NCBI GenBank assembly: GCA_049643885.1
Contig: JBARQV010000025.1
Span: 7,382-71,381 of the forward strand
DNA length: 64,000 nucleotides
Source: Candidatus Omnitrophota bacterium
GTDB taxonomy: Bacteria; Omnitrophota; Gorgyraeia; Tantalellales; Tantalellaceae
Reading direction: 5' to 3'
Positions 4,416-58,588 of the stretch are shown here, piece after piece. Position 1 is the first letter of the stretch. Every line of letters starts with the position of its first letter. The position numbers were made by a program, and so were the translations under genes. Under the pieces are notes generated by a model. The model was not told the DNA's origin, did not search any database, and saw only the letters and a program-made list of their open reading frames with translations.

Positions 4416-4449
4416 CCGACGTAAAAATCATCGTTTCAATAACTTATTT

Positions 4450-4598
4450 AAAATGTTTGTTCTGTTTCCAGCGGGGACGTCCAATTCCCCCCAGCGAGGG
4501 AATTGTACTCTAAAATTTCCTCGCTCGTCCTCGCTCCCGCTCGGACACCGTGCCCGCTCGGAAATTTAAAGCCCCGCTTACAACAAAACAAACATTTT
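4450..4598. repeat. Palindromic MITE-like element, family D (copy D2)
   Basis: Terminal inverted repeat aaaatgtttgttctgtttccagcgggg ... ccccgcttacaacaaaacaaacatttt. The core is homologous to D1 in inverted orientation, and a third partial copy lies at 29105-29162. Confidence 0.6.
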
Positions 4599-5821: not shown

Positions 5822-6019
5822 TTACTCACCGACCTTATCGAACCGGTCGACAACCAGCGCTATCAGAAAACAGGTATTGGCCATTGAAAAGTAACCACCA
5901 ATGGTATAAAATACCGGCTCCAATAGGTTAAGCCCGGCCATTTTCAGGATCAGGCCAAACATGATCATAAAAAATCCCAATAGCACCAGAGAACCTACCG
6001 CCAGGTTCATTTTACGCAT
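5822..6019 (-). CDS. Small membrane protein (2 TM), hypothetical
   Basis: 65 aa with two hydrophobic helices. A good RBS (AAAGGAGTGAACGT-ATG) precedes the start. Confidence 0.4.
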   Translation of the reverse strand: MRKMNLAVGSLVLLGFFMIMFGLILKMAGLNLLEPVFYTIGGYFSMANTCFLIALVVDRFDKVGE

Positions 6020-6165
6020 ACGTTCACTCCTTTTTTCATTTCACAGAAAGTATACCCTCAAGTACTTATCGTGTCAAATAGATAGGAAAAAAAATCAGAC
6101 GTCAGAGTGCGGAGCGAAGCGAAACCTCTCCGGAGGGAATTTCGGGTATGGGCAAGAACTACTTC

Positions 6166-6364
6166 CTGCAAAAACAATGAAATTAAAGGGTCCCATTCCA
6201 AATTTTAGGTATTTTTATAGCTTTTGAAGGAAAAAAGCGTAAAAGCTGTCCGAGCCCCGCTGCTTCGCCTTGCAAAGCAGCGGGGGCGAGTTCTTTTACG
6301 CCCTTCGAAAGTTAGAAAAATGCCGTTAAAAAATTTGGTGGGAAGAATTTCATTGTTTTTGCAG
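6166..6364. repeat. 199-bp long imperfect palindrome, family C (copy C1)
   Basis: Arms ctgcaaaaacaatgaaatt ... aatttcattgtttttgcag pair perfectly. Internal arms (gcgtaaaag / cttttacgc, ccaaatttt / aaaatttgg) also pair around a central hairpin cccgctgcttcgccttgcaaagcagcggg. A second copy lies at 29262-29479. Confidence 0.7.
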
Positions 6365-6427: not shown

Positions 6428-6928
6428 CTAATAAACCCGCTTATTGGGGAGGGTTTCCCAGAATCTCAGAAGTTTTTCGCATTCTTCGCGCATGAACCCA
6501 CCGTGGACCTCTACAGGCGAAACCCCGGATTCCTTCATCTGGCTTACCGGGATAGTGAGCTCATTGAACCCCAGTTTTTTTACATCTTCGATACCCGTGC
6601 CGTAAAACAAACGGCTTATCCGGGCCCAGTGAATAGCGGCAAAGCACATGGGACACGGTTCGGTAGTAGAATAGGCTTCGCACCCGGTAAGATCGAAATT
6701 TCCTAATCTTTTTGAGGCCAGCGAGATAGCCCGTATCTCCGCATGCTGCGTAGGGTCATTGTCCCTTAAGACCGTATTACAGGCCGAAGCGATGATCTCC
6801 CCGTTCTTTACGATCACTGCCCCGAAAGGCCCTCCGTGACCGCCACTTGCCCCGGCCCTGGCCTCTTCTATCGCCTTCAACATAAACTTCTCATCCATTT
6901 GAATAAAACTCCAAATCTCAAATTCCAA
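6428..6928 (-). CDS. guaD: Guanine deaminase-like CDA-fold zinc deaminase (GuaD/TadA superfamily)
   Basis: GGPFGAVIVKNGEIIA...NDPTQHAEIRAI...PCPMCFAAIHWARI matches the B. subtilis GuaD-type CMP/dCMP deaminase signature (H-A-E and PCxxC zinc ligands). The true start is probably one of the internal Mets (MDEKF or MLKAIEEA). Confidence 0.6.
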   Translation of the reverse strand: MEFEIWSFIQMDEKFMLKAIEEARAGASGGHGGPFGAVIVKNGEIIASACNTVLRDNDPTQHAEIRAISLASKRLGNFDLTGCEAYSTTEPCPMCFAAIHWARISRLFYGTGIEDVKKLGFNELTIPVSQMKESGVSPVEVHGGFMREECEKLLRFWETLPNKRVY

Positions 6929-9121: not shown

Positions 9122-11456
9122 CTTCGCTCTTCTCTATTTCCATTTCGGCTTTATTTGATAAGGAATTATCCGGATACCTCTGGATCAATTCCCGGAACGC
9201 TTCTATCGATTTCTCTTTATTACCGGCTTTGCGAAAAGTCATCCCGGCAAGGAAAAGAGCCCTGGCGCAGAGATCTTCGTCCTCATAAAGTATGGCCACC
9301 ATCATATACGTCTTGGCGGCCTCCTCGTAATCCATCATCTTTTCCTTGATGTTTGCCGTCTCAAAGCGGGCCAGAGCGCCGGTAAGGTTATCTTTATGTT
9401 TCTCCAGGGCCTTTTCCAGCAACGACAGGGCTTCCTCGTAATTACCCAGGGCGGACTTGCAGCGCCCCAATCCCAGGTAAGAACGTTCCAGGTAAGGGGA
9501 ATCCAGGCCCATATTCACCGCTTTCTGCAATTCACCGGCGGCCTTTTCCCACTCCTTAAGGCCGATATGGCTCTCGCCCATGAGATAGTAGATCTCCCCG
9601 TTGGTTTGGACTCTCGGATGTTTTTCCGTAAAATCTTCGAGGACCGTAAGGGACTTATCGAACTGGTTGTTTGAAAGAAAATATTCCGCGACCCACCTGT
9701 AAACACTTTCGGGCAGTAAGTAGTCCTTCCTTTCGGTCATCAATCCGTAATAGACCTCGGCGGCTTTCCCGTAATCGCCTTTCTGGAAATATGAATACCC
9801 TATTGCCTCGGTAGCAATATCATAAAACCTGCCTTCCTTGTCCCCCGTCAGGTTTGAATAATACTTAATAGCTTTATCCCAGTCCTGCTTACCCTGGCAA
9901 GCGCGAGCCGTCCAGTAAACGGCTGATTCCCTGACTTTCGACTCCGGAAACTCTCTCATGAATCTTTCGAAGGTCTCCACTGTCTTATCATAATTCTCAG
10001 ACTCAAGGTACAAAGTGCCCAGCTGAAAAAGGACGTTTTCCTTAAGCGGACTGGCGGAATACTTCGAAAGAAATAGATCGTAATCCGACTCGGCCTCTGT
10101 GAAACGTTTCAGGGCCATATTTTCCTGTCCCGACTTAAGAAGTATTTCCGGACTTCTGGGATCCTGGGGATATTGAACGGCGAATTTCTTGTAATACTGG
10201 ACCGCTTTTTGTTTTTTCCCGGACGCGTCATATAGCCAACCAAGCTCATACAAAGCTTCTTTCGCGAAACCCGTGCCCTTGAAGTCCTTGACTATCTTTT
10301 CAAAAACACTCGTGGCATCATTAGTCCTTTTCAACTTATCAAGCGTTTTCCCCTTTATATACAGGGCCTCATCCTTCGACTCTTTGGCGCGGCCGAGATA
10401 AGCATCAATGATCGAAAGGCATTTCCCGTAATCTCCCGATTTGTAAACAGACCAGCACCTGTTAAGCCAGGATTTAAGCCCGGCCTGGGTGCCGGGATAT
10501 TTTTCGGCCAGCTGGGCGTAGATCTCTTCTGCCTCGGCGAACTTGTCTTTATAAAAAAAGCTGTTAGCCCGCATGAAGAGAATATCCGACGTCACCGATT
10601 CATCTTTGACCCGCCGCAGAAGGTCCTCCGAGAGATCGATCACCCGGTCATATTCCCCGGCCCTATACAATGAAGAGACGAGGCCGATAGCCGCACCGTC
10701 AAAAACGCCGGACTCTTCCCCGATCTCGTCGATGATCTTTTTGTACACACCCTGAGCTTTTTTCAAATTCCCCGCCCGGAGGTAAGCATTACCGGCCCGA
10801 AGCAGGGCCTGGCCCACTATGTTCCCGGACCCGGACTGTGCCGCTTTCTGGTAAATTTCCGCGGCGCGCAGGAAGTCATTCTCTTCAAAATATATATCCC
10901 CAAGGTTCAGGTAACCGAACGGTGCGTATTCGCTGTTCCCGGATTCGGACAAAACTTTTTCAAGAAGGATCTTTGATCTTTCCATGTCCCCCCGCCTGAA
11001 ATACACGCCGGCAAGATAATATTCAGCGGCTACCCGGGGAGCTCCCGCGTCTTCCTTGCCGACCAGGGCCAGAAGAAGGACTTCTGCCTTGTCATAATCC
11101 CCAAGGAGATAATATATCTGCCCTCTCCTGAGCTCAGCGTTCCGTGCCAGGTCCCCTCCGGGGTATCTTTCGATAAAAGCGCCGTATTCCTTTAATGCCT
11201 CGTCGTATTTTTTAGCCATGAAATAACTTTCGCATACACGGTAAACCGCAAGCTCCGCGTACTGACTCTGGGGATACTTTTCAAGGAAGGTCTTATAACT
11301 TTCGACGGCCATATCATACATTCCCCTGGAAAAAAGGCCGTTGGCAAAATCGAATTCCTCGATCTCCTGACCGGCTTTTTCCTGCTGGCTGAATGAAACC
11401 GGCTGTATAAGGAAGAAACTGACCAGTAACGTAAAAACGCATCTCGCGGTCTTCAT
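9108..11456 (-). CDS. Tetratricopeptide-repeat protein with signal peptide
   Basis: Signal peptide followed by about 20 TPR-like 34-residue units (recurring A..Y/F..G.Y..A pattern). It overlaps the downstream VWA gene by 14 nt. Confidence 0.75.
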   Translation of the reverse strand: MKTARCVFTLLVSFFLIQPVSFSQQEKAGQEIEEFDFANGLFSRGMYDMAVESYKTFLEKYPQSQYAELAVYRVCESYFMAKKYDEALKEYGAFIERYPGGDLARNAELRRGQIYYLLGDYDKAEVLLLALVGKEDAGAPRVAAEYYLAGVYFRRGDMERSKILLEKVLSESGNSEYAPFGYLNLGDIYFEENDFLRAAEIYQKAAQSGSGNIVGQALLRAGNAYLRAGNLKKAQGVYKKIIDEIGEESGVFDGAAIGLVSSLYRAGEYDRVIDLSEDLLRRVKDESVTSDILFMRANSFFYKDKFAEAEEIYAQLAEKYPGTQAGLKSWLNRCWSVYKSGDYGKCLSIIDAYLGRAKESKDEALYIKGKTLDKLKRTNDATSVFEKIVKDFKGTGFAKEALYELGWLYDASGKKQKAVQYYKKFAVQYPQDPRSPEILLKSGQENMALKRFTEAESDYDLFLSKYSASPLKENVLFQLGTLYLESENYDKTVETFERFMREFPESKVRESAVYWTARACQGKQDWDKAIKYYSNLTGDKEGRFYDIATEAIGYSYFQKGDYGKAAEVYYGLMTERKDYLLPESVYRWVAEYFLSNNQFDKSLTVLEDFTEKHPRVQTNGEIYYLMGESHIGLKEWEKAAGELQKAVNMGLDSPYLERSYLGLGRCKSALGNYEEALSLLEKALEKHKDNLTGALARFETANIKEKMMDYEEAAKTYMMVAILYEDEDLCARALFLAGMTFRKAGNKEKSIEAFRELIQRYPDNSLSNKAEMEIEKSEGEKE

Positions 11457-14691: not shown

Positions 14692-14771
14692 TATAGTGCA
14701 GCATATTCCCTACCAGGGCCCCTCCGCCCGGTGTGGATCCTCCCTGTACGGGAACATACTGCACTATGCTC
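14692..14771. repeat. Palindromic REP/MITE-like element, family B (copy B1)
   Basis: atagtgcagcatattccc-taccagggcccctccgcccggtgtggatcctccctgtac-gggaacatactgcactat. The outer 18-20 bp are inverted repeats, and the core is shared with copies at 29163-29244 and, inverted, 28240-28386. Confidence 0.7.
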
Positions 14772-14790
14772 TTTGCCCTACGTGCTTGTG

Positions 14791-16272: not shown

Positions 16273-16968
16273 CTATTTGATCTTTATGGTGACTACCAGG
16301 TCACCTTTATGCCTGCAGCATGGACATTCATTCCCCTGCCCCCGCAGCCTCATCTTCTGTCCTTGTTTTGTCCCGGGCGGTATTTTTAGGGTTATGTTCT
16401 TGCCGCTTGAAAGCCTGAACTTCGCTTCCCCTCCTTTTTCCGCGAGTTTTACCGGGATCGGCAGCTCCGCGGTGATATCGGTATCGACCTCGCTTGCTGC
16501 ATACTCTCTGTCTCCCCGGAGTCCGCCTCCTGTCGAATAATAGAACGTACGCGTCCCGCCGGACCGCCCAGAACCGGAGAATATGTCTCCGAAAAGGCCG
16601 TCAAATGAGGATCCTGAGGAAAAGCCCCCGGAAAACTGCTTCAGAAAATCGGAAAAATCAAATCCTTGAGCAGAAGAAAAATCCCCGGTATAAGCACCCA
16701 TCCTCCGGAGATTATCGTATTCCTTGCGGCGCTTTTCGTCGCCCAGGGTATAATAGGCCGCGGAGATCTCTTTGAACTTCTCTTCCGCCTTTTTATCGTC
16801 CGGGTTTTTATCAGGGTGATATTTAAGGGCCTGCTTCCGGTAAGCCTTTTTGATCTCTTCAGCGCCGGCGCCTTCTTTTACGCCAAGAATGTCATAATAA
16901 TCTTTATTCGCCATCACTGCCCCCTTGACCTTTTGTCTTGAAGAAGAACGTTTCTTTCTTTTCGTCAT
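16273..16968 (-). CDS. J-domain protein (DnaJ/CbpA-like co-chaperone, no zinc-finger domain)
   Basis: J-domain DYYDILGV...[13 protein letters not shown] with the HPD motif, then a Gly/Phe/Ser-rich linker. Confidence 0.75.
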
Positions 16969-26874: not shown

Positions 26875-26973
26875 TATGTCATCCCGGACGAGCCCAAAGG
26901 GCTCGATCCGGGACCACATAATATTATTATATGATCCCGGGTCTCGGCCTGCGGCCTCGCCCGGGATAACACT
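26875..26973. repeat. REP/MITE-like element, family A (copy A1)
   Basis: tatgtcatcccggaCGAGCCCAAAGGGCTCGatccgggaccacataatattattatatgatcccgggtctcggcctgcggcctcgcccgggataacac. It has two hairpin modules and degenerate terminal inverted repeats (atgtcatcccgg / ccgggat.ac). Confidence 0.7.
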
Positions 26974-28239: not shown

Positions 28240-28386
28240 GCTACAGTGTCCGAGCACCGCACAAGCCAGTAGCGCGGAGGGGCCCTGGTAGAGAACATAC
28301 TGCAAGCTGAGGAGTGTGGTGTGTTCCCGTACAGGGAGGATCCACACCGGGCGGAGGGGCCCTGGTAGAGAACACACCACACTCCT
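28240..28386. repeat. Family B palindromic element, copy B3 (inverted orientation, partially duplicated)
   Basis: The core ggcggaggggccctggtagagaaca occurs twice (28265-28290 and 28350-28376) flanking gttcccgtacagggaggatccacaccgg, which is the reverse complement of the B1 and B2 core. The outer stem is a different sequence (ggagtgtggtgtgttccc / gagaacacaccacactcc) but still pairs. Confidence 0.65.
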
Positions 28387-28396
28387 AAACTTGTAA

Positions 28397-29062
28397 ATGG
28401 ATGTTAAATCTTGGATACATAATGGGGTCAATGTTATTTTTCCGGCAAGGTGCACGGTCTGCAAAACCGCTCCGGTTCCCTATCCCCTGCCGGTCTGCGA
28501 AAATTGCAAAAATTTCCTTCTTTCAGAAAAAATGCTGCCTTCCGTATCTTCCGCGTTACTTGTGGAAATATGGTCGTGCCTGCCGTATGAAGGGACGATC
28601 AGGGAATTTATTAAAAAATTCAAATACTCGGGACAAAGGCAGTTAACGAGTTTTTTCAGCGACCTGGTACGTCGATTTCTCAAGGAAAATAATATACCGA
28701 AAGAGGATATCGACCTTATCGTGCCTATACCTATCCACCTGGCCCGGCGCGTATCAAGAGGATATAACCAATCTGAGATCATAGCCAGGATCCTGTCAGA
28801 TCTCTTAAATGCCCCTTTCTCCAATAACGTTCTGATCAAAACAAAAAATACGCACCCACAGATCGGACTTTCAAGAAATAGCAGGATCAAAAATCTACGC
28901 GGTTCTTTCCGGGTACCGCGCCTGTCGCCGGTCATCGGGAAATCTGTAATGTTGGCAGATGACGTGGTAACGACCGGGGCTACCCTGGAGGCTTGCGCCG
29001 CGGAACTGCTCCGCGCCGGAGCCAAGGAGGTCCGCGCATTCACGCTCGCCCGCACATTGTAA
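28397..29062 (+). CDS. comF: ComF-family phosphoribosyltransferase-domain protein
   Basis: N-terminal CxxC-x-CxxC zinc ribbon (CTVCK...CENCKN) and a C-terminal PRTase motif VMLADDVVTTGATL. Confidence 0.8.
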   Translation: MDVKSWIHNGVNVIFPARCTVCKTAPVPYPLPVCENCKNFLLSEKMLPSVSSALLVEIWSCLPYEGTIREFIKKFKYSGQRQLTSFFSDLVRRFLKENNIPKEDIDLIVPIPIHLARRVSRGYNQSEIIARILSDLLNAPFSNNVLIKTKNTHPQIGLSRNSRIKNLRGSFRVPRLSPVIGKSVMLADDVVTTGATLEACAAELLRAGAKEVRAFTLARTL

Positions 29063-29104
29063 AGTATCAGAGTGTCAGAAAATATCCGATTCACCGTTGT
29101 TTTC

Positions 29105-29162
29105 TAAAATGTTTGTCCTGTTTTTACAGGGGACGTTCATTTCCTCCACCGAAGAAGTAAAG
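29105..29162. repeat. Family D element, truncated copy D3 (left arm and start of core only)
   Basis: taaaatgtttgtcctgtttttacaggggacgttcatttcctccaccgaag matches the D2 left arm and the start of its core. It is interrupted by the family B copy that follows. Confidence 0.5.
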
Positions 29163-29244
29163 ATTGCAGTGCAGCATATTCCCTACCAGGGCCCCTCCGC
29201 CCGGTGTGGATCCTCCCTGTACGGGAACATGCTGCACTGCGCAA
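29163..29244. repeat. Family B palindromic element, copy B2
   Basis: ttgcagtgcagcatattccctaccagggcccctccgcccggtgtggatcctccctgtacgggaacatgctgcactgcgcaa. The core is identical to B1 and the outer stem pairs. Confidence 0.7.
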
Positions 29245-29261
29245 CTTACATCCGAACTAAA

Positions 29262-29479
29262 AACAGCTCCACAAAAACAATAAAATCAAAGGGACCCATT
29301 GCCAAATTTTAGGTATTTTTATAACTTTTGAAGGAAAAAAGCGTAAAAGCTGTCCGAGCCCTTTTTGTTTTCTTCCGGAAGAAAACAAAAAGGTCGAGTT
29401 CTTTTACGCCCTTCGAAAGTTAGAAAAATACCGTTAAAAAATTTGGTTGGGAAGGTTTTATTGTTTTTGTGGAGCTGTT
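29262..29479. repeat. Family C long palindrome, copy C2
   Basis: Arms aacagctccacaaaaacaataaaa ... ttttattgtttttgtggagctgtt pair perfectly. The internal sequence is about 85% identical to C1, but the terminal arms and the central hairpin (ctttttgttttcttccggaagaaaacaaaaag) carry different sequences that keep the pairing. Confidence 0.7.
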
Positions 29480-29519
29480 TATTGCGCCAAAGAAGACGAG
29501 CGACGAACGACGACTAAGG

Positions 29520-30611
29520 CTAGCTCTTGCGGTTGATTTCCCAGGCGCCGATGAGGATGAAGAGGATGTTACTCAGCCAGGCGGCTACTACCGGGGGAAG
29601 AGCGCCGCCTTTACCCAGGGCCAGGCATATAGCCATAGTCGGCAGATACAACAAAGCCATGCCGATACCCTTGGCCATCCCGATAAGTGCGTTAGCGCGT
29701 CCTGATGTTATGCTGAACGGGACTCCGACCATGACCACTGCTATGGCAGCGAACGGAAAAGATAATTTATAGTTAAGATCGACAAGGAGGCGTCTCACAG
29801 CAGTGGGCGAGCTTCCCTTAAATATCTCAATATGCTTCCCGAGCTGCCCGTAGCTCATAAGCCGTGGGTCCCACTGGTTGGTGACAAAGTCATCCGGGGT
29901 TTCCGTTATCGGAAGTTTCTTGTTCTGATAGACCTCAGGTTCTCCTGTAAAATCCCCGTTCGTGTCCACGTTGAAGATCATGACGTCCGTACCGTACCAG
30001 AACCCGCCGTTCCGCCATTTCGCGAGCCTTGCGCTGATCTTTTTTGTGACGATACGGTTTTCGTCGTGTTTGTGGATGATCACGTTCTCCAAAGTCTTGT
30101 TCCTGGGAATATAAGACTTGGCGAAGATTATCTGGTTGTTTGCTCCGTACATCGCCAGATTCTTAACGACCGCGGCGCCTTCTCCTTCCTTCTCCAGTTC
30201 TTCCTGCCTGATCTGGCTGGCCTTCTCCATACTGGAAGGCACGAACTTGTCGTTCACTATGAGTGTGATCAGGCAAAAAACGAAAACTATCACTATTATC
30301 GGCCTTAGAAGCTTCCATATGCTCAGACCGCTCGTTATTGCCGCAGTTACCTCCTGGTTCTTGCTCAGATTATTAAACACGTATACGGAACTTAAAAGCG
30401 CCGCGAAGGGGACCATGTTCACGAAAGCGAAGGGAGCAAAATGAAAATAGAACATCAGGATGCTAACCAGGGGTATGTTTTTCTTGAAAATATCATCCAG
30501 GAACCCCAGGATATCCCCTATCACCCCGAGGACCATCAGGAGCGTTATGCAGAATAAAAACGCCGCGATAAAATCTTTGACGATATATTTTTCGAGTATC
30601 CTCATTTTCAA
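29520..30611 (-). CDS. lptG: LPS export ABC permease LptG (YjgP/YjgQ family)
   Basis: N-terminal MKMRILEKYIVKDF...LLMVLG, a periplasmic beta-jellyroll middle and C-terminal TMs. Confidence 0.8.
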   Translation of the reverse strand: MKMRILEKYIVKDFIAAFLFCITLLMVLGVIGDILGFLDDIFKKNIPLVSILMFYFHFAPFAFVNMVPFAALLSSVYVFNNLSKNQEVTAAITSGLSIWKLLRPIIVIVFVFCLITLIVNDKFVPSSMEKASQIRQEELEKEGEGAAVVKNLAMYGANNQIIFAKSYIPRNKTLENVIIHKHDENRIVTKKISARLAKWRNGGFWYGTDVMIFNVDTNGDFTGEPEVYQNKKLPITETPDDFVTNQWDPRLMSYGQLGKHIEIFKGSSPTAVRRLLVDLNYKLSFPFAAIAVVMVGVPFSITSGRANALIGMAKGIGMALLYLPTMAICLALGKGGALPPVVAAWLSNILFILIGAWEINRKS

Positions 30612-47500: not shown

Positions 47501-47600
47501 TATGTCATCCCGGACCCGCCGAAGGCGGGATCCGGGACCAAATAATATTGTTATATGATCCCGGGTCTCGGCCTGAGGCCTCGCCCGGGATGACATATTG
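47501..47600. repeat. Family A REP/MITE-like element (copy A2, complete with terminal inverted repeats)
   Basis: tatgtcatcccggaCCCGCCGAAGGCGGGatccgggaccaaataatattgttatatgatcccgggtctcggcctgaggcctcgcccgggatgacatattg. The ends caatatgtcatcccgg / ccgggatgacatattg are perfect TIRs. Confidence 0.75.
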
Positions 47601-47601
47601 T

Positions 47602-49167
47602 CTATCTCTTCTTCCAGGCGTAATACCTAAGACTGTCCTCCAGCCACTCGCGGCCGTTACGGACGAATTCCGTCCACCGCGAGGCAAGGCACATGCCCCT
47701 GGCAGTATCCGCGTTCCCCTCCCCTATCTTCTGCGAGACCGTGGCCAGGTCAAGCTGCAGGCGGATCGGAACCCGGTTCTTTTCATCTTCCGGAAGCAAT
47801 TTCGCAAGGCTGACCAGCGCGTCCGCTCCTTTAAGGAGTATATCAAAAAGGACTTTCTCTCCGCCTATCGCCCCAACCATGATCTCGTTTACCGGTCCCA
47901 GCCGAAGTATTTCCAGTTCCCCGGTCTGTTTATTGGAAATGTTGTCAGCTCCAAGGTATCCTATACCTTCTTCGGCAAAACCAAGCTGGAATATCCTGTG
48001 ATAAATGGTCTCAAGCCTGGGGCCGTTACTCGACAGGCGGTAATGCGATCTCAGCCCCCAGAGCCCGAAATCTATATGCTCGTTTACCAAAGGGATATAC
48101 CTCCTCTGGAATTTCTTTTCAAATATTTCTAGTGAAGAAACAAGTTTTTCTTCCGCTAGCTGCCGGTCTATGATCATTTTCGCGAGCTTCTCCCTGCGTT
48201 TCCCCGCGCATCCTTCGAGGTAATCTTTGAGTATTTTCAGGGCTACCGCGTCATCCGCGCCCTCGATGGGAAGATCCAGATGCAGGTAACTTGACCTCAT
48301 CTTTTCATCCGAGAAAAAGAGCCGGTATATCCATAAAAGCTCCTTCATCTTTGCTTCATTCGACGTATCGAGATCGATAAATGTCGGATGGATCTCCGAA
48401 ATATCTCCCGAAACCTTCGATAGGTCGGGTATGATGTAACCATCCCCGGCCTTGGTGATCCGGAAACCCCCAAGCCCGCCTCCGCCTTCATGGGGTTTGA
48501 CAAAAAAGGTGTCATCTCCGGTTTCCTCTATAAGTTCATCCACAGCATCAAACATATCCCCGACAACGGCCTTTATACTCTTCCCCTCGACAGGTATTTT
48601 TTTATACATGGCGACCTTATCCCAATTTTTGCCGTCATTAGAAAGCAGCCTGTACGTGCTGTCCTTGTCGGAAAAAACGCTCCCGGGGGCCGTCTCCTGA
48701 CCCGGAACTATAACGGCGCCCATACTCTCCAGATCCATCGCCACGGATACGTTATAAACATTTTTATCCACGCACTGGCTCATTACAAGCGTACTCCCGG
48801 GATACTCGTTCACTTCCTTCATCAGCTCGTCATGCGTGTTGACAACGGTCGATCGTATTTTCCATCCTTTCTCCGCGCACAACTCATTAAAAACACGGGC
48901 AGTCTCATAGGATGTGGGTAGATCGTCATGAGAAGCATTTATGATCACGATCTTTTTAGGAAGTTTATTCAATGATGGTTCCTTTTCCAGGCAGAATTCC
49001 CTGAAAAGGTCCTTCTCTCCAAGGAGCGAGTTGAACAAGTCAATAAGCCTGGTATTATAATCCCCTCCTTCACCGTCAAATATAAGTGACCGCAAATAGA
49101 ACGGCGCCTGGTAAGGGTCATCGCCCTTGTATCCGGTCACATAATATTTCGGGTCTCTTTCTATCAT
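47602..49167 (-). CDS. ATP-grasp-like ligase, 521 aa (unassigned family)
   Basis: Central FFVKPHEGGGGLGGFRI (ATP-grasp Lys and Gly-rich loop), a preceding Rossmann-like pre-domain (KKIVIINASHDD) and a long helical C-terminal extension. It starts 3 nt after the stop of the 482-aa ATP-grasp gene. Confidence 0.45.
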   Translation of the reverse strand: MIERDPKYYVTGYKGDDPYQAPFYLRSLIFDGEGGDYNTRLIDLFNSLLGEKDLFREFCLEKEPSLNKLPKKIVIINASHDDLPTSYETARVFNELCAEKGWKIRSTVVNTHDELMKEVNEYPGSTLVMSQCVDKNVYNVSVAMDLESMGAVIVPGQETAPGSVFSDKDSTYRLLSNDGKNWDKVAMYKKIPVEGKSIKAVVGDMFDAVDELIEETGDDTFFVKPHEGGGGLGGFRITKAGDGYIIPDLSKVSGDISEIHPTFIDLDTSNEAKMKELLWIYRLFFSDEKMRSSYLHLDLPIEGADDAVALKILKDYLEGCAGKRREKLAKMIIDRQLAEEKLVSSLEIFEKKFQRRYIPLVNEHIDFGLWGLRSHYRLSSNGPRLETIYHRIFQLGFAEEGIGYLGADNISNKQTGELEILRLGPVNEIMVGAIGGEKVLFDILLKGADALVSLAKLLPEDEKNRVPIRLQLDLATVSQKIGEGNADTARGMCLASRWTEFVRNGREWLEDSLRYYAWKKR

Positions 49168-50619: not shown

Positions 50620-50624
50620 AATAA

Positions 50625-50667
50625 TATGTCATCCCGGAATTCGCCGAAGGCGAATATCCGGGATCAA
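50625..50667. repeat. Family A element, half copy (A3)
   Basis: tatgtcatcccggaATTCGCCGAAGGCGAATatccgggatcaa. It lies in the 44-nt gap between the DUF1704 and ATP-grasp genes and starts 5 nt from the ATP-grasp ATG. Confidence 0.65.
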
Positions 50668-51764
50668 TTAACAATAAACCCCGGCAAGTACTTCGGCGGC
50701 TTCAAGATACCCTCGTCGAGCAGCTTCTTTACAATGCCGACATCTCTCAGGCCGATCTTGCCTATATAAAGAATACTTAAATTTCCTCGATTTTCAACAT
50801 ATCGCCGCATTTTAGGCCACCCGCTGATATAGTGGTAATCGCGGGGGAAACCACCCGGGTTAGATGTGTCCTCGATCCCCCTCTTCGCCCTTTCAGCCAG
50901 CCTGTAGGCCAGGTAATCCGGAAAAAACTCTCTGAGGGCCAGGAACATATCGTAAAACGAGACCTTGAGGCAAAGATCCGCCGCGAGTGTCCTTCCCGCG
51001 TAAAGCTTCATCTGCCGGGTGTCCGTCTCCAGGCACCCCGCCTTCTCTTCAGCAAGAATGGCCAGCCCTTCTTCCGTCTCATCATACCCGGCGAGCCCGT
51101 CCCGGAATATCTTGTAAGGCTGCTCTTCTCCGTTGATACCCCTGTAGACGTGCACCTCGATCTCGTGGACCTTCAACCTTTCGACTTCTTCTTTAGTGTA
51201 ATTGATGGCCGAATTTATATAGACCGTCCTGTCCTTTGATGAAACGGTGATCTTGGGAACGATCTTTCTGCTCAGGACGACTTCCCATCCGATGCCTTTT
51301 TCTTCCAGTCCCTTCCGCAGGACGGAAGCCATCTCCTCCGGCGGCACCGTTTCTTCGGGAAACTCGTATCGCCTTTCCCTGCTCTCTGAAAGGACATTCC
51401 CTGCGATGTCCAGGCATTCTCCGTCCGGCGCGCCGTACAACCTTACCGCGTTCACGGCGAACTGCGGATCGGTGCATTTGATGAGTTCCAGCTGCTCTTG
51501 TATAAAAACGATCTTGTCGATAAAGAGCCTGTGAATATCGTTGCTTTCGTCAAGGGCGTCCCTGGTCTCGCGAAGCCACCTTTCCTGGTAAAAGAACTCG
51601 ACGTCCTTATACTTGTAGACCGGATTATAACGGGCGCCCTTCTTGAAATTCGAAAAGAATTTCTCCTTTTCCTCTTTCTGGTTCAAAGGGGTCAGGTAAG
51701 AATAAAAATCGACCTCTCGCATGATCTCGCTTATGCGATTATCTATCCCGTGCAAATTTATCAT
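50664..51764 (-). CDS. DUF1704/MATCAP-like metallocarboxypeptidase-fold protein (QEGLA-motif family)
   Basis: An HExxxH-type motif (KVHEIEVHVY) and the family's signature ETEEGLAIL (QEGLA-type). Size is about 366 aa. Confidence 0.65.
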   Translation of the reverse strand: MINLHGIDNRISEIMREVDFYSYLTPLNQKEEKEKFFSNFKKGARYNPVYKYKDVEFFYQERWLRETRDALDESNDIHRLFIDKIVFIQEQLELIKCTDPQFAVNAVRLYGAPDGECLDIAGNVLSESRERRYEFPEETVPPEEMASVLRKGLEEKGIGWEVVLSRKIVPKITVSSKDRTVYINSAINYTKEEVERLKVHEIEVHVYRGINGEEQPYKIFRDGLAGYDETEEGLAILAEEKAGCLETDTRQMKLYAGRTLAADLCLKVSFYDMFLALREFFPDYLAYRLAERAKRGIEDTSNPGGFPRDYHYISGWPKMRRYVENRGNLSILYIGKIGLRDVGIVKKLLDEGILKPPKYLPGFIVN

Positions 51765-54883: not shown

Positions 54884-54960
<77 letters not shown>

Positions 54961-54987
54961 ACCGTACATATAGAGCAGTGCTTTTAA

Positions 54988-55008
54988 TGGTGCGGGTGGA
55001 GGGATTTG
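54988..55008. repeat. 21-nt duplicate of the tRNA-Leu(TAG) 3' end
   Basis: tggtgcgggtggagggatttg is identical to 55196-55216, the tRNA-Leu 3' end, and lies 187 bp downstream of that tRNA. Confidence 0.6.
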
Positions 55009-55195
55009 GCGCCTCCGTCCCGCTAAACATGTTTTTATTCCTCGCTTCCGCTCGTCAAAAAACATATCGGGACTCCGGTCGGCCATCCGCCGCTTCGGTT
55101 GTGGTCGTTTCTTCGCCAGCTCAGAAACTCCCTTTATTAAAACCTCAGCGGCTCCCTTCAACTCCCCACCATTCTATGCAATTACTGGCGAAAAG

Positions 55196-55279
55196 TGGTG
55201 CGGGTGGAGGGATTTGAACCCCCACGGATAAACCACTGGCTCCTAAGGCCAGCGCGTCTGCCAATTCCGCCACACCCGC
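55196..55279 (-). tRNA. tRNA-Leu (TAG)
   Basis: GCGGGTG-TG-GCGG-AATTGGCAGA-CGC-GCTGGC-CTTAGGA-GCCAG-TGGTTTATCCGTGG (long variable arm)-GGG-TTCAAAT-CCC-TCCACCCGC-A-CCA. Confidence 0.85.
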
Positions 55280-55323
55280 CTAAAACAGACTTCAGACATC
55301 AGTCTGTTGTCTGTGGTCTGAAA

Positions 55324-55402
55324 TGGTCGGGAAGGCGGGATTTGAACCCGCGACCCCCTGCTCCCAAAGCAGGTGCGCTAGCCAGGCTGCGCTACTTCCC
55401 GC
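55324..55402 (-). tRNA. tRNA-Pro (TGG)
   Basis: GCGGGAAGTAGCGCAGCCTGGCTAGCGCACCTGC-TTTGGGA-GCAGGGGGTCGCGGGTTCAAATCCCGCCTTCCCGACCA. Confidence 0.85.
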
Positions 55403-55409
55403 AAAAATA

Positions 55410-55486
55410 TGGGGTGAGCGATGGGGATTGAACCCACGACCACCTGAGCCACAGTCAGGCGCTCTACCAGCTGAGCTACGCTCACC
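55410..55486 (-). tRNA. tRNA-His (GTG) with encoded G-1
   Basis: G-GTGAGCG-TA-GCTC-AGCTGGTA-GAGC-G-CCTGA-CTGTGGC-TCAGG-TGGTC-GTGGG-TTCAATC-CCCAT-CGCTCAC-C-CCA. The extra 5' G pairs with C73, as is characteristic of bacterial tRNA-His. Confidence 0.88.
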
Positions 55487-55618: not shown

Positions 55619-57121
55619 ATGCTGAAATTTCTTAAGATCTTACTGGTCATCACATTTTCCATCGCTGCATTACTGGCGGCCGCGTACTTCCTGTATAAAG
55701 ACACGCTTGCCGAAAAAGCGGAAGCTGTTTTCGAGGCCAGGCTCTCCGAGATATTCAAGCAAAAAGTCGATATCGGCGCGATAAAATACCTTCCCTTAAG
55801 CTCTTTTAGCCTAAGGGATGTTGCCATTTCTGATACCGTTCGTATTCAGAATATAACTTCAAGGATCGACCTTTTAAGCATATTGAAAGAACGGGAATTC
55901 CGGTCAACCGTTGCGATCAAAGGCTTCAAGATGAAAGATATTGAGGTCAGCGCGACACTTAAGACGGAATCGCTAAAGGCTGGATCGTACAAGGACGTGT
56001 TCGATCCATCTCTTCTGAAGACCATTTCTATCACCGGGTGCGAACTGAAGACAAAACTGTTTTCCCTGGAAAAGATCCAGGGTGAAGTAAATATCGAAAA
56101 AACAGGTTACCGGGTCTGTCTCTATTCCGACGGATTGGAGGCAATCTTTGAGGCAAAATCAAAAGATACTGCTGCCACGGAAAAAACCCTGGAGATAAAC
56201 GGAAAGGTCGAAACCGACATCGGAAAACTCTTGTCCTTTTCCGGCCCGATCGGATCATTCATTAAAAACTGCAAAGCTTCCGGCAAGATCGGTTCCAAGA
56301 TCTTTATGTCCCTGAAAACGACGGAGATCCGGGACTACGAATTAAATGCCAGGATCGATTCGGATCAGATCATGTTCAATAACATCAAGGTCGGCGACAT
56401 CCATGGGGGCCTTTATGTCAAAAAGGGACGCCTTAATGTGCCTTCGGTAACGGCGACGCTCTACGGGGGCACGGTATCTTCAAACCTGGAAATGGACCTC
56501 CATGATAAAAACCTCCCCTTTCTTTTTACCTTGAACATGCGGGACGTCGAATTCGGCAATATGTTACGGGACGCGATAAACGATAAGGTCAATGTTTACG
56601 GAAAATTACTCATAGATCTGTCCCTCAAAGGAAATGCCGTCGACAGTTCGGCTTTCACCGGCAACGGAGAGATAATCATAACAGACGCCGACCTCGGGCC
56701 GATGCCGATCCTCACCCCCCTTCTGGGTAACATCTACGGGTACCTTCAAAGCTTCATCCCGGGGATGGAAAAAGTAACTATTACATCGGCCGGCGCGACC
56801 TTAGACATAAGAGACCGGAAGATCATGAGCGACGACCTGGTCTTATGGAGCGAAGAGGTATTCATCACCGCCAAGGGCCACATGGATTTTAACGGAACCC
56901 TGGATTTTACCGTCGAGAACCAGCTTATCCAGCCGGAAGAAGAAGAACTAGACAGCTGGCAGGGCATATTCAGGAGGGCTATAACGGGCTTCGGCAAGAT
57001 AATAAGTAAAGCGCACTTGCGAGGGACAATAAAAAAATCGAAATGGGAATTTGAATATCTAACTCCCTTGAAGGATATGTTCCGGAAAAGCGTCAGGGAG
57101 TTTATAAATACTTCTCAATAG
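55619..57121 (+). CDS. AsmA-family membrane-anchored protein
   Basis: N-terminal TM anchor, a long beta-rich periplasmic region and an AsmA-like C-terminal region. This is the only long plus-strand gene in the window. The candidate promoter is TTGCAG-17-TGATATACT. Confidence 0.55.
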   Translation: MLKFLKILLVITFSIAALLAAAYFLYKDTLAEKAEAVFEARLSEIFKQKVDIGAIKYLPLSSFSLRDVAISDTVRIQNITSRIDLLSILKEREFRSTVAIKGFKMKDIEVSATLKTESLKAGSYKDVFDPSLLKTISITGCELKTKLFSLEKIQGEVNIEKTGYRVCLYSDGLEAIFEAKSKDTAATEKTLEINGKVETDIGKLLSFSGPIGSFIKNCKASGKIGSKIFMSLKTTEIRDYELNARIDSDQIMFNNIKVGDIHGGLYVKKGRLNVPSVTATLYGGTVSSNLEMDLHDKNLPFLFTLNMRDVEFGNMLRDAINDKVNVYGKLLIDLSLKGNAVDSSAFTGNGEIIITDADLGPMPILTPLLGNIYGYLQSFIPGMEKVTITSAGATLDIRDRKIMSDDLVLWSEEVFITAKGHMDFNGTLDFTVENQLIQPEEEELDSWQGIFRRAITGFGKIISKAHLRGTIKKSKWEFEYLTPLKDMFRKSVREFINTSQ

Positions 57122-58464: not shown

Positions 58465-58588
58465 TATGTCATCCCGGAATTCGCCGAAATAGAAATATGT
58501 CATCCCGGAAATCCTGAGCGAAGCGAAGGATTATCCGGGACCACATAATAATTTTATTTGATCCCCGCTTTCGCGGGGATGACATATT
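58465..58588. repeat. Family A element, composite copy A4 (half module plus complete element)
   Basis: tatgtcatcccggaattcgccgaaatagaa, a truncated module matching A3, is followed by a full element atatgtcatcccggaAATCCTGAGCGAAGCGAAGGATTatccgggaccacataataattttatttgatccccgctttcgcggggatgacatattg. Confidence 0.7.

Follow-up and report, generated by a model that had tools for sequence, protein, structure and literature searches.

In a stretch of 64,000 nt from a Candidatus Omnitrophota bacterium (assembly GCA_049643885.1, contig JBARQV010000025.1; hereafter the window), we identified two copies, C1 and C2, of a palindromic element of about 200 nt, referred to here as family C. According to the comparison of these copies with further ones from other assemblies, family C is best explained, with modest confidence, as a non-autonomous palindromic repeat resembling miniature inverted-repeat transposable elements (MITEs) and REPINs (doublets of repetitive extragenic palindromic sequences, REPs), in which arm pairing would be kept by hairpin processes at the DNA level together with copy-to-copy conversion.

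C1 occupies positions 6166-6364 (199 nt, plus strand) and C2 positions 29261-29480 (220 nt, plus strand), with family homology over 29269-29472 in the latter. The initial annotation had placed both copies here at about 85% identity, which was confirmed by blastn (85.0% over 200 nt, 6169-6361 versus 29272-29469). Its extent for C2 (29262-29479) needed a small correction, because the palindrome is 29261-29480 and runs 8-10 bp beyond the family homology, 29261-29268 pairing with 29473-29480. The long blocks common to C1 and C2 are exact, with two occurrences in the 64-kb window and none expected from shuffled sequences. Each copy is a single long hairpin, an imperfect palindrome, with a predicted RNA minimum free energy (MFE) of -98.7 kcal/mol (z -11.4) for C1 and -104.5 kcal/mol (z -13.7) for C2; none of 200 shuffles folded as stably as either. 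The main differences between the two lie in the terminal stem (arms CTGCAAAAACAATGAAATT/AATTTCATTGTTTTTGCAG in C1 and CCACAAAAACAATAAAATC/GGTTTTATTGTTTTTGTGG in C2) and in the apical hairpin. All divergent segments find their complement within the same copy, as had been claimed, although the C2 arms are not the perfect match described, as they contain one T.G wobble. With an nhmmer profile, C1 was recovered at E 6e-64 and C2 at E 2e-70, and no further copy within the window was found by motif search or nhmmer. Weak nhmmer matches at 51588-51636 and 16860-16901, both inside coding sequence, were regarded as chance.

Further copies were found in other assemblies, so that at least five are known from at least four unrelated intergenic sites. 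The window proteins were matched exactly on contig JBARSM010000037.1 of the metagenome-assembled genome (MAG) GCA_049644745.1, and the species is also present in four more NCBI MAGs, one ENA assembly and several Logan assemblies. A 19-mer of the other core arm led to one true copy, C3 (L032:33-233), in an independent JGI metagenome; its neighbours are a tRNA gene and V-ATPase subunits, both outside the window. A translated-frame alignment of the element was also searched against proteins, in order to catch open reading frames (ORFs) miscalled across copies, and returned one protein, a spurious ORF annotated as Candidatus Omnitrophota, whose contig carries C4 (L038:2759-2965, minus strand, the same as L050:9629-9836). 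Because MAG GCA_049644805.1 contains both C4 and the ferredoxin locus of the window, C1, C2, and C4 represent three loci within a single species. A diverged inverted copy, E5, lies in the same spacer as C4 (L050 about 9353-9630; nhmmer E 3e-5); it exactly retains CTGTCCGAGCCCC...GGGGCGAGTT and has a good terminal arm at 9353-9376. Two members thus stand head to head at L050 9353-9836, E5 on the minus and C4 on the plus strand, and the E5 arm at 9353-9376 is 92% complementary to the C4 3' arm, better than C4's own 5' arm.

Identity among the copies is 82-93%, with unrelated flanks, and the genes next to C3 and C4 are unlike those at C1 and C2. Copies beyond the two of the initial annotation thus exist (C3, C4, and E5, at other loci), and the unrelated loci argue against local duplication. 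Relatives reached via the neighbouring transporter are all Omnitrophota; nothing similar to family C was found in viral contigs by scans or in plasmids and phages by distant blastn, and the arm motif does not occur outside the elements in the DNA examined. Indels between copies break the reading frames, leaving no stable frame, and the element is non-coding. Taken from these sequence comparisons, the family is a small, lineage-restricted, dispersed, non-coding hairpin repeat among housekeeping genes rather than a local duplication.

The anatomy of the element was derived from alignment A3 and predicted folds. The features in the window are as follows:
6166-6364, plus strand: whole hairpin of C1, the same in every species assembly that spans the locus.
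6166-6184, plus strand: 5' arm of the C1 terminal stem (CTGCAAAAACAATGAAATT), pairing perfectly with 6346-6364.
6185-6245, plus strand: conserved 5' core of C1 with the 7-nt internal loop and the A6 bulge (repeat family D6, alignment A3).
6246-6254, plus strand: 5' side of the C1 foot-of-apex loop (CTGTCCGAG), exact even in the diverged E5.
6255-6285, plus strand: apical hairpin of C1, GC type (CCCCGCTGCTT...AAGCAGCGGGG), sharing homology with the C4 apex and with that of the L036 allele of C2 (described below), unrelated to the AT type.
6286-6292, plus strand: 3' side of the C1 foot-of-apex loop (GCGAGTT).
6293-6345, plus strand: conserved 3' core of C1 (repeat family D5, alignment A3).
6346-6364, plus strand: 3' arm of the C1 terminal stem (AATTTCATTGTTTTTGCAG), partner of 6166-6184.
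29261-29480, plus strand: whole hairpin of C2, family homology 29269-29472.
29261-29268, plus strand: 5' side of the copy-specific outward extension of C2 (AAACAGCT), pairing with 29473-29480, with no counterpart in C1, C3, or C4.
29350-29358, plus strand: 5' side of the C2 foot-of-apex loop (CTGTCCGAG).
29359-29393, plus strand: apical hairpin of C2, AT type, including CCTTTTTGTTTTCTTCCGGAAGAAAACAAAAAGG, a perfect 34-bp palindrome that lacks an unpaired loop.
29394-29400, plus strand: 3' side of the C2 foot-of-apex loop (TCGAGTT).
29473-29480, plus strand: 3' side of the copy-specific outward extension of C2 (AGCTGTTT), pairing with 29261-29268.

The terminal stem measures 19-21 bp in C1-C4 (C-NN-CAAAAAC-MAT-RAAR-TY and its complement), and its sequence drifts while the pairing stays. 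The core, with about 60 nt per side, is asymmetric and nearly invariant; every copy shows the same irregularities, with an A6 bulge on the 5' side and a bulge of 4-5 nt on the 3' side, besides an internal loop of 7 nt and a single A.G mismatch. The inner stem has 9 bp (GCGTAAAAG/CTTTTACGC); above it, the two sides of the foot-of-apex loop read CTGTYYGAG (5') and CGAGTT (3'), so that a direct YGAG...CGAG brackets the apex. Two unrelated types of apex occur, a GC type in C1, C4, and the L036 allele, which are mutually alignable, and an AT type in C2 and C3. Checked for flip/flop inversion, the C1 apex aligned to those of C4 and L036 only 2 points better as reverse complement than directly. The possibility that the apex is an independent small REP-like mobile unit was rejected, the YGAG-hairpin-CGAG module being found solely inside family members in the DNA examined. 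Beyond the family homology, the palindromes of C2 and C3 extend by 8-10 bp of copy-specific sequence, that of C1 by a bulged 5 bp, and that of C4 not at all. The flanks of C2 (AAAAACAGCTCC...GGAGCTGTTTATT), if joined without the element, would by inference form a bidirectional terminator-like hairpin.

Conservation of pairing was assessed in six sequences, consisting of the four loci and two extra alleles of C2. Standard pairs account for 98.3% of the arm cells. Both partners have changed in six pairs, which all belong to the terminal helix (helix 1), compared with 1.9 +/- 1.1 in shuffles (0/500 reached six), and sliding the partners by 1-3 columns left 0-2 such changes. One-sided changes in the core helices are without exception transitions, with G.U/G.T as the resulting pair on the plus strand. 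When each 5' arm was compared directly with the reverse complement of its 3' arm, the transition mismatches of C1-C4 comprised seven distinct plus-strand G.T events versus one A.C, and E5 in its own orientation gave three versus one, making 10 to 2 in total (one-sided binomial p about 0.02). In 6/6 sequences, moreover, folding is more stable for the plus strand than for the minus strand, by 1.5-12 kcal/mol. The constraint looks strand-specific, pointing to a single-stranded form, either RNA or single-stranded DNA (ssDNA). A mutation bias from replication or transcription was considered as the cause of the wobbles and rejected; in the window it is the plus strand that is rich in C and mostly non-coding, and the usual biases would then predict the opposite polarity for C1 and C2.

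Near-identical strains of the species show how the element changes. C1 is identical in all assemblies spanning its locus. L036 (GCA_049645485.1) matches the window at all but 3 positions of the 11.7 kb outside C2, and its C2 carries 22 differences within 67 nt, the AT apex and the adjoining inner stem being replaced by a GC-type apex. L035 (GCA_049642145.1) has seven differences from the window in 19.2 kb, three of which are transversions (G>T, A>T, T>A) packed into 25 nt of the C2 3' arm. At each of these three sites the other copies all have a mismatch, whereas the L035 base forms a Watson-Crick pair with the 5' arm, and the MFE drops from -104.5 to -110.2. Both sets of changes look clustered and templated; the L036 event resembles ectopic conversion from another copy, and the L035 event resembles correction against the opposite arm. 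Previous studies showed that template switching in palindromes repairs and creates stems (PMC8794818), and that it homogenises and expands inverted repeats (PMC13100816). The initial annotation had read the covariation as a sign that the hairpin itself, in RNA or as a cruciform, is being kept. Its observation holds insofar as pairing is kept beyond chance, but selection on either structure is not thereby demonstrated, because template switching or correction in DNA palindromes gives the same pattern (PMC8794818). The two recent differences seen between MAGs are both events of this kind, in which several clustered bases changed. Quasipalindrome template switching (PMC8794818, PMC7202029, PMC13100816) accounts for the clustered mismatch-to-pair changes, the loopless palindromes, and the outward growth; as a mutational process, however, it leaves the dispersal, the invariant bulges, and the strand-biased wobbles unexplained. 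Short-read contigs break at the apices, with L029 and L049 ending at about 6250 (C1 apex) and L037 at about 29368 (C2 apex), while contigs L042-L044 begin at about 28260, at a GC-rich repeat neighbouring C2. Since these palindromes, the GC-rich repeat included, fragment the MAGs in this way, counts of them from MAGs will be too low.

The window is ordinary chromosome, encoding MoxR/BatA-D, LptF/G, PfkA, AdoHcyase, MetK, PTS, tRNAs, and fumarase. The two features that frame its copies are:
6049-6077, minus strand: sigma-70-like promoter TTGACA-17-TATACT (11/12 consensus) of a 65-aa gene at 5822-6019.
29063-29519: spacer between the convergent ComF-like (28397-29062, plus strand) and LptG-like (29520-30605, minus strand) genes.

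C1 sits between this promoter and the stop of a deaminase gene (6428-6898, minus strand), antisense to both genes. The C2 spacer contains one member each of three repeat families, at 29100-29147, at 29168-29250, and C2 itself. C3 lies downstream of its tRNA gene, and C4 is co-directional with its neighbours while E5 is inverted. All copies are located at gene ends or upstream of promoters, with no consistent orientation to transcription, and the flanks of C2 and C3 are inverted repeats.

The C4-E5 locus offers evidence of insertion. The spacer there is 663 nt long, from the stop of aspartate dehydrogenase (AspDH) to the start of a Na/Pi cotransporter (NaPi). Three relatives, whose transporters share 80-85% amino acid identity with this one, have the same AspDH/NaPi/IMPDH order with spacers of 114, 89, and 52 nt, and these short spacers hold the same TTGACATAAT...TTTATG promoter that is found just downstream of C4. 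Since relatives with the same gene order have spacers of 52-114 nt without it, the segment with C4 and E5 is a lineage insertion; its exact boundaries and any duplication are not readable at this locus, because the spacers cannot be aligned base for base. In one relative (L052, about 2845-2885), a small terminator-like hairpin, GGGCAGTCTAAAAATCTGCCC, occurs where E5 and C4 sit in this species, which fits with elements occupying terminator positions. The idea that the E5 arms are an inverted duplication of the local NaPi promoter was also considered and rejected, as the scores (21-23) fall below the shuffle maximum (25-26) and nhmmer shows a diverged family member.

Among known systems, MITEs and REPINs come nearest. 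Like a MITE, family C has terminal inverted repeats around a core, no coding capacity, and several dispersed copies, although it lacks a direct target-site duplication. Bacterial MITEs such as ERIC, Correia, RUP, and Nezha are 100-400 bp long, intergenic, without transposase, and fold into long, very stable stem-loops, as family C does, and they are often located at gene ends and co-transcribed, a gene-end siting that family C shares (PMC3184786). In MITEs the terminal inverted repeats are the best conserved part, whereas in family C the termini are the least conserved paired part. REPINs, the REP doublets mobilised by RAYT, likewise form a long, intergenic, non-coding hairpin in ssDNA or mRNA (Bertels & Rainey 2011, PMC3116915). 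They share with family C a middle that varies yet pairs, compensatory changes, a variable spacer, clustered and paired copies in one spacer, and the lack of direct target duplication. However, in REPINs the two terminal REP 16-mers and a tetranucleotide are invariant, whereas in family C it is the internal part that does not change, in contrast to variable termini and a variable apex; a REPIN measures about 70-110 nt and occurs in tens to hundreds of copies, compared with about 200 nt and five copies seen here; and in place of two inverted GC-rich REP units as conserved ends, family C has a single apical hairpin flanked by YGAG...CGAG. The view of the initial annotation that the element is unlike ordinary MITEs was therefore overstated, because long stem-loops are a classic property of bacterial MITEs (PMC3184786) and compensatory changes across the hairpin are common in REPINs (PMC3116915). 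Judged by its sequence features, family C appears to fall outside each named class, including the integron sites discussed below, though it seems to work like small palindromic mobile repeats, a class with many representatives in bacteria.

The three options offered by the initial annotation were a structured RNA, a hairpin-replicating mobile element, and a nucleoid or recombination site; the mobile element fits best, and the other two are kept at lower weight. In the proposed mechanism, an enzyme would recognise the plus strand of the element in folded, single-stranded form and propagate the unit with this polarity. Most likely it would be a transposase or nuclease whose gene lies elsewhere and which acts in trans, with the fixed bulges and the foot-of-apex loop as its recognition features. 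Pairing would be maintained mainly in DNA, where short-patch template switching or repair would use the opposite arm to correct mismatches in the extruded hairpin, and apices might be swapped by ectopic conversion between copies via the roughly 75-bp conserved arms. As a side effect, each copy is probably a large hairpin barrier or stabiliser on read-through transcripts, and a role at the RNA level or as a protein-binding DNA site is possible and compatible with mobility.

Several observations weigh against this mobile-repeat explanation. The core 18-mer found no element in 185,579 species genomes, and few copies are known overall; the species, or the element, appears to be absent from the GTDB representatives (23 matches of GCGTAAAAGCTGTCCGAG in the genome collection were chance matches in unrelated taxa, none with the second core). 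No transposase, integrase, or HUH gene was detected in the window or in about 170 kb of DNA of the species and its relatives by gene tables and domain searches, so the mobilising enzyme is purely postulated; in the same 170 kb, there was no match to RAYT (Y1 HUH transposase, PF01797-type), and no parent insertion sequence with the same termini was seen. The flanks of C1-C4 show neither a direct target-site duplication under any reasonable end definition nor a clear conserved target motif, and the relatives document the absence of the whole 560-nt segment only, with no precise single-copy empty site. The strand bias comprises 12 events in all. The bulges between the three L035 changes are intact; because they were kept, a single long switch does not fit, and therefore either correction in short patches or a donor copy that escaped detection must be invoked. 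Both variants, moreover, come from short-read MAGs and could be chimeras formed via the shared arms, although even as chimeras they would document further copies with these properties.

An alternative is that the element acts as RNA, either in cis as a barrier, terminator, or stabiliser in the 3' untranslated region or as a stand-alone non-coding RNA, with the pairing kept by selection on the fold. The predicted fold is extremely stable, the changes keep pairing via G.U on one strand, and copies are found where transcripts end (in sense orientation, C2 after ComF and C4 after AspDH, and also C3 after its tRNA gene). Furthermore, since ssDNA and RNA motifs are indistinguishable bioinformatically (PMC5737381), sequence alone does not settle whether the DNA or the RNA form is concerned. 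Nevertheless, family C had no Rfam match at the gathering score, a search of the window returning tRNAs only, and the best sub-threshold match was a plant miRNA hairpin at 36 bits versus a threshold of 160, which is generic hairpin noise. No promoter is common to the copies, and a scanner found no hairpin-plus-T-tract terminator at C1 or C2 (0 sites); an intrinsic terminator was likewise rejected, as the T run lies 3-4 nt from the GC apex and is interrupted. C1 and E5 are antisense to the surrounding transcription, whose transcripts would show A.C for each plus-strand G.U. A single mismatch barely alters a hairpin of -100 kcal/mol, which makes selection on the fold pair by pair hard to justify. 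A folded DNA strand is favoured over selection for RNA stability, because C1 is antisense yet carries plus-strand wobbles and one mismatch is trivial at this stability. The apex, moreover, is exchangeable for unrelated sequence, and the C2 apex is palindromic through the loop, a signature of the DNA level. We therefore regard an RNA function as the main cause of the pairing as doubtful, though a serious possibility.

It is rather unlikely that a host protein uses the element as its DNA site, for instance as a cruciform or bent DNA serving the nucleoid, recombination, or replication, and that the element was spread by recombination and not by transposition. The invariance of the foot-of-apex loop (CTGTCCGAG...CGAGTT) and the bulges even in E5, the lack of target-site duplication, and the perfect 34-bp palindrome of the C2 apex would suit such a site. 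However, close relatives without the element argue against a conserved host function, no exact match of the core 18-mer or 19-mer in an element context was found in other genomes, the strand-asymmetric wobbles indicate a single-stranded form and not a duplex, and two head-to-head copies in one spacer look like repeated insertion. Slightly less probable still is a hairpin-propagating ssDNA element of an undescribed kind, in which an HUH-like nuclease would nick the direct YGAG/CGAG sites and the folded strand would be copied by self-priming. By analogy with parvovirus-like hairpin transfer, such copying would renew or flip the apex, keep the arms complementary, and extend the palindrome into the flanks at each new site, which would give the copy-specific outer stems of C2 and C3. 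This reading is compatible with the data because the foot is invariant even in E5, the apex was exchanged at one locus, and there is strand polarity with no target duplication. An integron attC-like recombination site is very improbable. In attC sites, a folded single strand of one polarity is recognised, and structure, extrahelical bases, and a variable terminal structure outweigh sequence, just as family C combines conserved bulges, a variable apex, a stem that varies yet stays paired, and strand polarity. But the termini CAAAAAC/GTTTTTG misfit the R''/R' consensus RYYYAAC/GTTRRRY, so the R/L core-site consensus is missing; the copies stand alone among housekeeping genes, 23 kb from one another, with no cassette array; no integrase or other tyrosine recombinase was found at any locus examined; and about 200 nt exceeds the usual attC range of 57-141 nt. 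Finally, the contigs that break inside elements, and variant alleles that could be chimeras, might suggest an assembly artefact or a simple local duplication with no biological family behind it. This is scarcely credible, given that C1 and C2 were assembled identically in several independent assemblies (NCBI MAGs, ENA, and Logan), that C3 comes from an independent metagenome, and that the copies are diverged rather than identical, in unrelated flanks.

Other repeats were also observed in the window. A second family, unrelated to family C, is a GC-rich imperfect palindrome of 71-92 nt (AGTGCAGCATATTCCC...GGGAACATACTGCACT) at 14695-14786, 28292-28393, and 29168-29250; C2 has one member as its immediate neighbour, and upstream of ComF a member occurs doubled and inverted. 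A third family (ATCCGGGACC..ATAATATTATTATATGATCCCGGGTCTCGGCCTGCGGCCTCGCCCGGGAT) has four intergenic copies in both orientations, at 26875-26971, 47524-47599, 50623-50676, and 58533-58573. A 40-48-nt motif, AAAATGTTTGT.CTGTTT..CAG.GGGACGT.CA.TTCC.CC, is present in three spacers (4444-4491, 29100-29147, and inverted at 490-528) and could be regulatory or terminator-like. In addition, two proteins of about 500 aa encoded at 47602-49167 (minus strand) and 55619-57121 (plus strand) have no Pfam match; the latter, beside a tRNA cluster at 54887-55485, has a weak AsmA-like NCBIfam match only.

A literature search found no paper on palindromic repeats in Omnitrophota, and family C, if the mobile-repeat explanation is true, adds a repeat family from this phylum. 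Its architecture is inverted relative to that of REPINs and MITEs, the core being conserved and the ends and apex variable. It would also offer a natural case in which hairpin "covariation" is traced to clustered events at the DNA level, a caution for the inference of RNA structure from repeats. The elements break short-read MAG assemblies at their apices, and they probably shape transcript ends at several housekeeping operons.

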